Positions 5,749 to 6,406 of a stretch of DNA of 13,829 nt are shown one piece after another; within the stretch, counting starts at the first letter, position 1; every line of letters begins with the position of its first letter. The translations under genes and the position numbers were made by a program. Under the pieces are notes generated by a model. It made no database searches and was not told the origin of the DNA. It saw nothing but the letters and a program-made list of their open reading frames with translations. Source of the stretch: Verrucomicrobiota bacterium (GTDB lineage: Bacteria; Verrucomicrobiota; Verrucomicrobiia; Limisphaerales; CANJXF01); assembly GCA_038214755.1 (NCBI GenBank), contig JBBQRQ010000122.1, positions 1 through 13,829 on the forward strand, in the 5' to 3' direction.

Positions 5749-6298
5749 GATTTTGGAAGAGCTGTAAGCCGAATTTTGTCTGCGCTCTTGCGAGCGGAGA
5801 GAATCATTTGTCTGAGCAGCCAGACCCGGAACCCCGATGGATTTCTCCATCTTGAAGCGGGCCGCTTCGAGTTCCCTATTTGGCCTTGCACCCGATGGGG
5901 TTTTCCGTGCCGCTCCGCTTGCGCTCGGCGCGGTGGTCTCTTACACCACCTTTTCACCCTTACCCAGCCCTTCCTGAAATTCTCAAACTGGAAACTTTTT
6001 GAAACGCCTTCGCACCTCCGAAAAATTTCTGCAGCCGATAATTTGAGGAAGGGCTGGGCGGTTTAATTTTCTGTGGCACTGTCCGTCAAAACGTTTTTGC
6101 GTTTCGCCCGCGTGTATCCCAGCCCTTTCTAAAACCTTTCCGCAACTCGCGTCGCTAAATAATTTCGCGGTTCAACCCGAGGCGATCGGTGGTTTCAGAA
6201 AGGGCTGGGTTACGCGGCATCGTGCCCTGCGGTGTTCGGACTTTCCTCCTCCATCCCGCTCGCGCCGGACGAAAGCGATTCTCCGCTCTTCCAAAATC
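5749..6298 (-). ncRNA. rnpB: RNase P RNA (bacterial type A-derived), ~550 nt, enlarged
   Basis: The minus strand has the universal motifs GAGGAAAGUCCG, AGUGCCACAGAAA, AAACCG, GGGUGAAAAGGUGGUGUAAGAGACCACC, AAACCCC...GCAAGGCCAAAUAGG and ACAAAAUUCGGCUUAC. P1 is a perfect 14-bp inverted repeat (5749-5762/6285-6298). The exact mature ends are approximate. Confidence 0.97.
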
Positions 6299-6332: not shown

Positions 6333-6406
6333 GAGGACAGAAGAAAGAATCGCACCAACGCGCACTGGGGGAATTACGCGTTCCGATCTCCGCGTTGCGA
6401 GTTGCA

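Follow-up and report, generated by a model that had tools for sequence, protein, structure and literature searches.

The rnpB gene in the stretch of DNA analyzed here (the window: 13,829 nt, contig JBBQRQ010000122.1 of the Verrucomicrobiota assembly GCA_038214755.1, order Limisphaerales) encodes an RNase P RNA with two hairpins of about 95 nt, one at the tip of helix P8 and one forming helix P12. These are best explained, with a probability of about 0.72, as independent copies, belonging to different subfamilies, of a widespread palindromic module with a 13-bp closing stem that resembles the intervening sequences (IVS) of ribosomal RNA. RNase P RNA is an essential ribozyme, and its bacterial form is seen as one continuous RNA of about 350–400 nt. 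In the following, A denotes the hairpin family of the window and B a heptamer-repeat palindrome seen at the same rnpB sites in relatives; G000 is the window's own genome, other G numbers are other genomes, and L numbers are loci in public or other records.

The gene was assigned to type A among the RNase P RNAs of bacteria by its Rfam score of 214.6 bits, against a threshold of 100, with the full model covered. In the Rfam alignment, its surplus length was made up of 96 nt inserted where the model has L8 and of about 80 nt inserted within P12, while P18 was absent (24 model positions aligned to 0). The features concerned were as follows:

5749–6294, minus strand: 546-nt rnpB for a bacterial RNase P RNA of type A, without P18 (RF00010, 214.6 bits, model positions 1–367 of 367).
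6210–6219, minus strand: 5' strand of P8 and the UAA(C) side of the P8 internal loop, conserved across the order.
6118–6209, minus strand: 92-nt A-family hairpin of the UUUCU arm subtype in the place of the distal P8 hairpin; a predicted rod, −47.9 kcal/mol, z −6.64.
6197–6209, minus strand: 5' arm (RNA sense) of the P8-tip element, CCCAGCCCUUUCU, exact match.
6118–6130, minus strand: 3' arm (RNA sense) of the P8-tip element, AGAAAGGGCUGGG, exact match.
6106–6117, minus strand: (G)AUACA side of the P8 internal loop and 3' strand of P8, conserved across the order.
5963–6058, minus strand: 96-nt A-family hairpin of the UUCCU arm subtype, forming P12; predicted fold −46.8 kcal/mol, z −6.73.
6046–6058, minus strand: 5' arm (RNA sense) of the P12 element, CCCAGCCCUUCCU, exact match.
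5963–5975, minus strand: 3' arm (RNA sense) of the P12 element, AGGAAGGGCUGGG, exact match.

The 13-mer CCCAGCCCTTTCT was found exactly at 6118–6130 on the plus strand and at 6197–6209 on the minus strand, and the 13-mer CCCAGCCCTTCCT exactly at 5963–5975 (plus) and 6046–6058 (minus). With up to two mismatches allowed, the arm 13-mers gave five matches in the window vs. 0.60 expected, a number that none of 200 shuffles reached. A repeat finder returned the inverted repeats of both hairpins as well as the mutual complementarity between the two elements. The 13-bp basal stems differed by one compensatory pair, and the fold energy of neither hairpin was matched in 200 shuffles. At the P8 tip the junction lay between GCCGCGUAA and AUACACGCGG, and at P12 between AAACCG and UAAGGGUGAAA. 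The interiors of the two hairpins were unrelated (z 1.1 in an interior-only alignment; here and below, such alignments of A copies were each scored against 100 shuffles). An earlier reading of the letters alone (hereafter the sequence-only reading) had described twin hairpins with near-identical basal stems, unrelated interiors and these same junctions, and had proposed an Rfam alignment to confirm the insert positions. Every checkable detail proved correct in the alignment, which placed the inserts at the model L8 position and inside P12, in the exact 13-mers, in the repeat finder and in folding. Its suggestion that the identical arms could pair with each other and trap the RNA in an inactive fold was rejected. 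With the local stems enforced, the energy of the whole RNA was −244.9 kcal/mol, vs. −219.1 and −220.7 kcal/mol for the cross-paired folds, which were thus disfavored by about 24–26 kcal/mol in the energy model.

The first hairpin had been placed in the loop of P8, and its position at model L8 was confirmed, but the site is not a simple terminal loop: a variable distal hairpin has been replaced there. In seven family members aligned by Rfam and in 22 of 23 order-level rnpB sequences compared over the segment from P5 to P11, P8 read GCCGCG-UAAC, then a hairpin of 6 to about 50 nt, then GAUACA-CGCGGG. The order has remodeled P8, with a conserved internal loop (UAAC/GAUACA) and a variable distal hairpin. 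The 92-nt element of the window takes the place of this distal hairpin and interrupts no terminal loop engaged in tertiary contacts. P12 and the distal P8 hairpin are variable tips facing away from the catalytic core, and inserts would for this reason be tolerated at both. Because the 3' part of rnpB measured about 200 nt in all order-level sequences compared, the absence of P18 extends to the whole order. A small hairpin at the P19 position was common to the window rnpB and 30 order-level rnpB sequences.

Further members of the A family were sought with the pattern CCAGCCCTTYCT-N50-80-AGRAAGGGCTGG, that is, two 12-nt arms 50–80 nt apart, in contigs from one genome per species and in metagenome contigs. 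The former gave 27 loci and the latter 43, and these 70 loci represented 56 distinct hairpins, of which 50 reached full 13-bp arms though the pattern required only 12. By our own rough arithmetic, fewer than one chance match per collection was expected; the GC-rich coding matches L127, L129, L177, and L123 may be of this kind. The arms read CCCAGCCCUUYCU/AGRAAGGGCUGGG and close a 13-bp stem, and the hairpins were about 75–103 nt long (about 95 nt in rnpB). The records carrying them were assigned to Verrucomicrobiota, Planctomycetota, Omnitrophota, Endomicrobiales, several Patescibacteria/candidate phyla radiation (CPR) groups, Saccharibacteria, Gemmatimonadaceae, Mesorhizobium, and others. The G+C fraction of the interior ranged from 0.18 to 0.74, tracking that of the host, with the arms unchanged; the conserved part of A is its arms and not its cargo.

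The hosts of these copies included structured RNAs, as determined by an Rfam scan of the contexts of 60 of the 70 loci (all except L131–L135, L137, L177, L180, L185, and L186). Within rnpB, A hairpins occupied the P8 tip (L122, identical to L155, L179, and L188; L136, identical to L149; and L187), with the junction UAAC/GAUACA as in the window; P3 (L113, L118, L184, L136, and L187); P12 (L163 and L187); and the P19 position, between the 3' strands of P2 and P4 (L187). The last of these records contained an rnpB of about 700 nt (L187:346-1048) with an A hairpin at each of these four sites, and the nearly identical interiors of its P3 and P12 copies suggest a recent spread within the gene. Ribosomal RNAs of other organisms carried A hairpins as well: in L154, one replaced the tip of a 16S rRNA helix at model position ~456 (8 nt vs. 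94 nt), and in L152 one lay within a 212-nt insertion of the 23S rRNA. The assembly of G000 contained no 23S rRNA. The cobalamin riboswitch of G009 (RF00174, 65.6 bits) had a 94-nt hairpin with UUUCU arms at a helix tip, where the model loop is 4 nt long vs. 86 nt, and the public record L130 had the same riboswitch sequence. Arms of 12–13 nt also directly flanked complete tRNA genes in L178:501-601 and L182:501-603 (RF00005, 61.7 and 70.3 bits), so that a 12–13-bp stem would form between the pre-tRNA's leader and its trailer. Comparison with short-hairpin relatives revealed the arrangement known from IVS, in that the A copies in structured RNAs replaced the native tip exactly, with no nested remnant of the native stem and no flanking direct repeat, i.e., no target duplication.

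Some of these records had other unusual features. In the CPR-like 16S rRNA of L154, a further 145 nt were inserted at model position ~188, and the insertions in the 23S rRNA of L152 measured 168 and 212 nt and lay near model positions 168 and 225. L113, a record titled uncultured Bifidobacteriaceae, had an rnpB with the Verrucomicrobia-type P8 internal loop and without P18 that grouped with L187 in the tree described below; the contig was probably mis-binned. In L151, L153 (identical to L189) and L181, an A hairpin stood between the conserved flanks UCCCGUGUUCCGCGGGAUG and GUC..AACCAAAGGAAA, which matched no Rfam family at E 0.001 and may belong to an unrecognized structured RNA.

Among the relatives of G000, the same two rnpB sites were occupied in some genomes and short in others. 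Four members of the same genus (G002, G004, G006, and G007) had an rnpB of 386–404 nt with a distal P8 hairpin of 18–21 nt and a short P12, and the P12 expansion of the window had no counterpart in these close relatives. Two others, G003 and G005, had an rnpB of 520 nt each with palindrome B at both sites, and G009, from another genus, combined B at the P8 tip with an A-type hairpin at P12. Inserts were present in four of the eight family genomes in which both sites were readable, and both sites were short in the other four. A maximum likelihood tree of the rnpB core, calculated from 14 rows with the variable tips removed (L122, L136, L184, L118, and G034 were dropped since their anchors failed), paired G003 with G004 (96/94) and G005 with G006 (98/94). 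Presence is therefore sporadic as for an IVS-type insert, with sister genomes differing in occupancy; since each genome with B at both sites is sister to one with both sites short, occupancy must have switched repeatedly over very short branches. A member of another family, G027, has the same short P8 hairpin, UUUUCGUUUCGGCGAGGAG, which is therefore the ancestral state and no remnant of a deletion. The expectation that the two sites would match each other within each genome held for G000 (A at both) and for G003 and G005 (B at both), but not for G009 with its mixture of B and A. In G001, neither the model nor a DNA search gave an rnpB match. In G008, rnpB was present only as a fragment at a contig end (L213, G008:C304:1475-1743) with a short P12; it ended within P9, just 3' of the P8 tip, where a repeat may have broken the assembly.

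The interiors of the A copies provided the best evidence for movement. For the P12 interior of the window, the closest matches were the copies at P12 in G009 (z 6.2) and in L187 (z 6.1), followed by the P19 copy of L187 (z 4.9); for its P8-tip interior, the closest was the copy at the P8 tip in L136 (z 4.1), followed by the P3 copy of L113 (z 3.3). Homologous interiors were also found at different sites: the P19 copy of L187 aligned with the P8-tip copy of L184 (z 8.4) and with the P12 copy of L187 itself (z 8.7), and the P8-tip copy of L187 with the P3 copy of L113 (z 6.4). Such homology across sites indicates that the module moves between helix tips. Selection at the level of RNA was suggested by the 17 A copies, several of them orthologs, whose host RNA fixes the transcribed strand. 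All 17 folded as rods with near-perfect basal duplexes, and in 15 the sense strand folded better than the antisense strand, with a mean difference of −10.2 kcal/mol and 81 predicted G-U pairs in sense vs. 23 in antisense orientation. A palindrome maintained only as DNA should show no such bias, which argues for selection on the RNA helix.

Copies with UUCCU arms were also found outside structured RNAs, at exact gene starts in Omnitrophota, Endomicrobiales and another bacterium (L111, L116, L119, L128, L131, L134, L135, L137, L160, and L164, as well as L193–L211). There, the 3' arm provides unrelated genes with a GGAGG-like ribosome-binding site and a GUG start, and the 5' end leaves a mini open reading frame (ORF) beginning MNPALP or MSPALP. 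A direct repeat TGAR stood on both sides of 10 of the 56 distinct A copies, all of this gene-start UUCCU subtype, and in G042 the UUCCU-type arms numbered 22 vs. 0 in the control. Some gene-start copies were composite, with a degenerate third arm or with a nested second family whose arms read CCCAGCCCCTCACCTC (L194).

By behavior, the closest known kind is the intervening sequences of bacterial rRNA, on which Burgin et al. reportedly published in 1990 and which occur in Salmonella, Campylobacter, Leptospira, and Coxiella (for Coxiella, PMC4990558). These are extended stem-loops of about 100 nt that stand in for the tips of peripheral helices, as do the hairpins of the window. They share with A a patchy occurrence among close relatives combined with presence in distant taxa, and A itself has members at 16S and 23S rRNA tips. 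Replacement of a tip in a stable RNA, patchiness among close relatives and sharing between distant phyla together make the A module IVS-like by analogy. Unlike in rRNA IVS, the host in the window is RNase P RNA, with two sites affected, one of them the P8 tip; A carries no ORF, and a riboswitch, the flanks of tRNAs and the starts of genes have its arms as well. A precedent in RNase P RNA itself is the P12 expansion of Thermodesulfatator indicus, which is reported to be excised in vivo both in the host and in Escherichia coli, leaving a fragmented yet functional RNA; its authors favor RNase E or possibly RNase III as the enzyme (PMC9945441). The two cases agree in having a long P12 expansion in a type A RNA that is absent from a close relative, and they differ in that T. 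indicus is affected at P12 only (PMC9945441), while in the window the P8 tip carries an insert as well. The likeness is one of architecture and of the mechanism that may apply here.

The hairpins of the window, presumably transcribed as part of rnpB, are predicted to fold locally, giving rods whose basal duplexes are near-perfect and at least 19 bp long; the rods would then either be carried as inert appendages or be cut out by RNase III. Basal duplexes of at least 19 bp are RNase III substrates, and G000 has the RNase III gene (rnc, C17:32782-33162; PF14622, 124.7 bits). Excision would break the RNase P RNA into three pieces, which P8, P12 and the tertiary fold would keep together. The option, already raised in the sequence-only reading, is strengthened by the family members at rRNA helix tips, the length of the duplexes, the presence of rnc and the published P12 precedent, and by this analogy we consider excision of the window hairpins by RNase III a tentative proposal with slightly less than an even chance of being right. 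A bolder form of the idea, in which the A stem would be a portable RNA-processing stem functioning in many phyla, whose cargo, be it an IVS interior, a tRNA or a 5' leader, is cut out by a ubiquitous double-strand RNase and which swaps for hairpin tips as a module, is in our opinion unlikely. If it were true, this bacterium would run on a three-piece RNase P ribozyme, and mobility would be RNA-centered, by way of highly expressed structured RNAs, and not that of a DNA transposon.

A number of points weigh against an IVS-like module in rnpB. A is a low-copy family in G000: a genome search for the arms, as proposed in the sequence-only reading, gave five exact 13-mers, four in rnpB and one outside it, and with one mismatch 23 vs. 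12 in the control. The other copies in this genome were short hairpins with the same stem (C17:15957-15983, C17:16165-16221, C5:47622-47647, and C32:28601-28626). In nine other genomes of the family, the arms occurred at background level only. The A pattern was present in one of 401 genomes of the phylum, G000 itself, and in none of an even sample of 400 others. A lineage-specific high-copy repeat was rejected as a description of A on account of these numbers; the family is rare and sporadic, yet crosses phyla. The interior alone was self-complementary in only 16 of the 56 distinct hairpins (z < −2), many of those outside Verrucomicrobial rnpB not being so, and "rod" does not fit the A family as a whole. 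No autonomous copy or enzyme was found: G041–G045, which have many copies, yielded ORF-less or composite ones only, with gaps in the pattern below ORF size. No insertion sequence with A ends turned up either, although no systematic search was aimed at one. The mobility of A was deduced from its distribution, and the 17 oriented copies are not independent, several being orthologs. Four small-share metatranscriptomes covered only the conserved rnpB cores of other organisms; none covered 5986–6029 or 6140–6183, and apparent joints with other letters were the short helices of other species. Lastly, we know of no transposition chemistry that would explain the exact replacement of a tip without target duplication. 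A literature search covering few subscription journals found neither the arm sequences nor any IVS-type rnpB hairpins described, except in one report (PMC9945441).

The sequence-only reading had offered a small element of the kind of miniature inverted-repeat transposable elements (MITEs) or of hairpins built from repetitive extragenic palindromic sequences (REPs; the hairpins are called REPINs), inserted twice at tolerated sites of rnpB. In its classical form, i.e., as a non-autonomous DNA transposon moved in trans by a transposase or a REP-associated tyrosine transposase (RAYT), with two chance landings, this is quite improbable. The 13-bp arms do constitute terminal inverted repeats, the UUCCU subtype is multi-copy in some genomes such as G042, the TGAR repeats resemble target duplications, and G000 is rich in REP-like repeats, among them a unit with ~290 copies. 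Yet neither rnpB copy has a target-site duplication, nor do the copies in rRNA and the riboswitch; the native helix tip is replaced exactly, without the element being nested in it; copies in G000 are few and not dispersed in number as expected of a MITE; the arms lack the GTAG-type motif of REPs; and the bias toward the RNA sense strand is not expected of a DNA-level palindrome. A mobile palindromic element inserted twice is still upheld by the arms in many phyla and sites and by the homologous interiors across sites, while the MITE/REPIN attributes fall away with the missing target duplications, the exact tip replacement and the low copy number. Bacterial MITEs that form RNA hairpins, namely Correia/NEMIS, ERIC and RPE, are small palindromes that are co-transcribed and tolerated in unusual places; unlike these, A shows no target duplication in structured RNAs, is low-copy and has arms that are identical across phyla. 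If the hairpins instead were a functional expansion retained by selection, the rods would help RNase P in folding, in stability without P18, in localization or in protein docking. This would suit an order that has lost P18 and remodeled P8, and arms that stay identical over interiors of 0.18–0.74 G+C suggest a sequence-specific constraint; in T. indicus, moreover, replacement of the expanded P12 by a short helix impaired complementation (PMC9945441). We nevertheless judge it very improbable, because four of the eight family genomes with a full rnpB have nothing but short hairpins at the P8 tip and P12, with sister genomes disagreeing, because the module recurs in RNAs of other kinds and at the starts of genes, and because relatives hold B, quite another palindrome, in these positions.

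To account for the matching stems at the P8 tip and P12, the sequence-only reading had also proposed gene conversion or a protein ligand common to both helices; more broadly, concerted evolution could come about by gene conversion or by duplication within the gene. The usual presence of one element family at both sites (A in G000, B in G003 and G005) and the near-identical P3 and P12 interiors of L187 are in its favor. For the window it is largely refuted by the unrelated interiors (z 1.1), each nearer to copies in other genomes, and G009 carries B together with A; since the arms are shared across phyla, their identity requires no local conversion. Conversion thus has a very small chance of being correct, and the same findings speak against a shared ligand as the reason for the match, though a protein ligand for the shared arms is possible. 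Least credible is an assembly artifact. G000 is a metagenome-assembled genome in 175 contigs, and the break in the G008 rnpB contig just 3' of the P8 tip implies that repeats can disturb assembly here, but the same architecture and junctions recur in independent public records (one P8-tip copy in L122, L155, L179, and L188, another in L136 and L149), and the two inserts of the window are unique sequences within an rnpB that is otherwise full-length and high-scoring.

Taken as IVS-like copies, the two hairpins mark peripheral helices of rnpB as landing pads for inserts of the kind that fragments rRNA, and a single hairpin family then connects RNase P RNA with 16S and 23S rRNA, with a riboswitch, and with the flanks of tRNAs and the starts of genes. 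Should the rods be excised, multi-piece RNase P ribozymes would be commoner than the single published case suggests; should they be retained, they would be natural examples of a large neutral cargo in a ribozyme. The A family also gives access to the old, unsolved problem of IVS mobility. The window contributes the P8 tip as a site where inserts are permitted, a remodeled P8 and a missing P18 throughout the order, the turnover of two element classes at one pair of sites within a genus, and an argument from strand asymmetry for selection at the RNA level.

The second of these element classes, palindrome B, consists of heptamer repeats (...AACGCGGAACUCGGAACGGGGAAC...GUUCCGCGUUCCGCG...) in the form (CGCGGAA)n...(UUCCGCG)n. 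Its copies were counted with an 18-mer at up to three mismatches and compared with a reversed-pattern control in each genome, giving 97 vs. 6 in G000, 45 vs. 4 in G003, 38 vs. 6 in G005, 34 vs. 1 in G008, 25 vs. 5 in G007, 16 vs. 5 in G009, 12 vs. 7 in G006, 10 vs. 13 in G001, 9 vs. 8 in G002, and 5 vs. 5 in G004; the counts for G003 and G005 include a few matches from the rnpB copies themselves. B is a dispersed repeat whose genome-wide abundance follows occupancy of rnpB, being multiplied where rnpB holds B; G000 has many copies genome-wide, yet A in its rnpB. A B-like heptamer pair, CGCGGAGATCGGAACGCG, with three mismatches to the B probe, lay at 6377–6394 on the minus strand of the window, about 85 nt upstream of the 5' end of rnpB. 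The nearest precedent for the B inserts of G003, G005, and G009 is the short tandemly repeated repetitive (STRR) heptamers that Vioque reportedly described in 1997 within helix P12 of rnpB in heterocyst-forming cyanobacteria. STRR heptamers are likewise repeated throughout the genome and present in P12; unlike them, the window hairpins have no heptamer repeats, the B arrays are palindromic, and arrays of the same design in G000 flank ORFs of family PF05635.

This family, the 23S rRNA IVS protein, gave 11 matches in a profile search of G000, ten of them above the cut-off:

C148:924-1241, C5:19129-19443, C55:3051-3362, and C43:11022-11345, PF05635 matches.
C49:5318-5617, C64:26709-26960, C2:28407-28691, C157:2073-2360, and others, PF05635 matches.

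Inverted repeats of at least 9 nt were present in the flanks of nine of the 11 loci, and at no fewer than eight the flanks were inverted arrays of short tandem repeats whose unit differed from locus to locus (GGTTGAG, GAGCGTG, AAGTGAG, GTGAAAC, and AATGACG among others). Since PF05635 genes in G000 are bracketed by such repeat-array hairpins, B can be regarded as a gene-less member of that class. A pair of B-type arrays 264 nt apart (G000:C13:57700-57963) was considered as a candidate cassette and rejected, both arrays being in frame within a longer minus-strand ORF; these inverted in-frame arrays resemble the in-frame palindromic inserts of Rickettsia. G000 proved rich in repeats in general: the 12-mers of a REP-like unit, GGGTAGCATCTGCCTCCGGCGGGTGCGAA, occurred ~290 times, a second, GTAG-containing unit about 180–210 times, and several further heptamer-repeat families, e.g., TCCGAAA and ACATCGA, were present.

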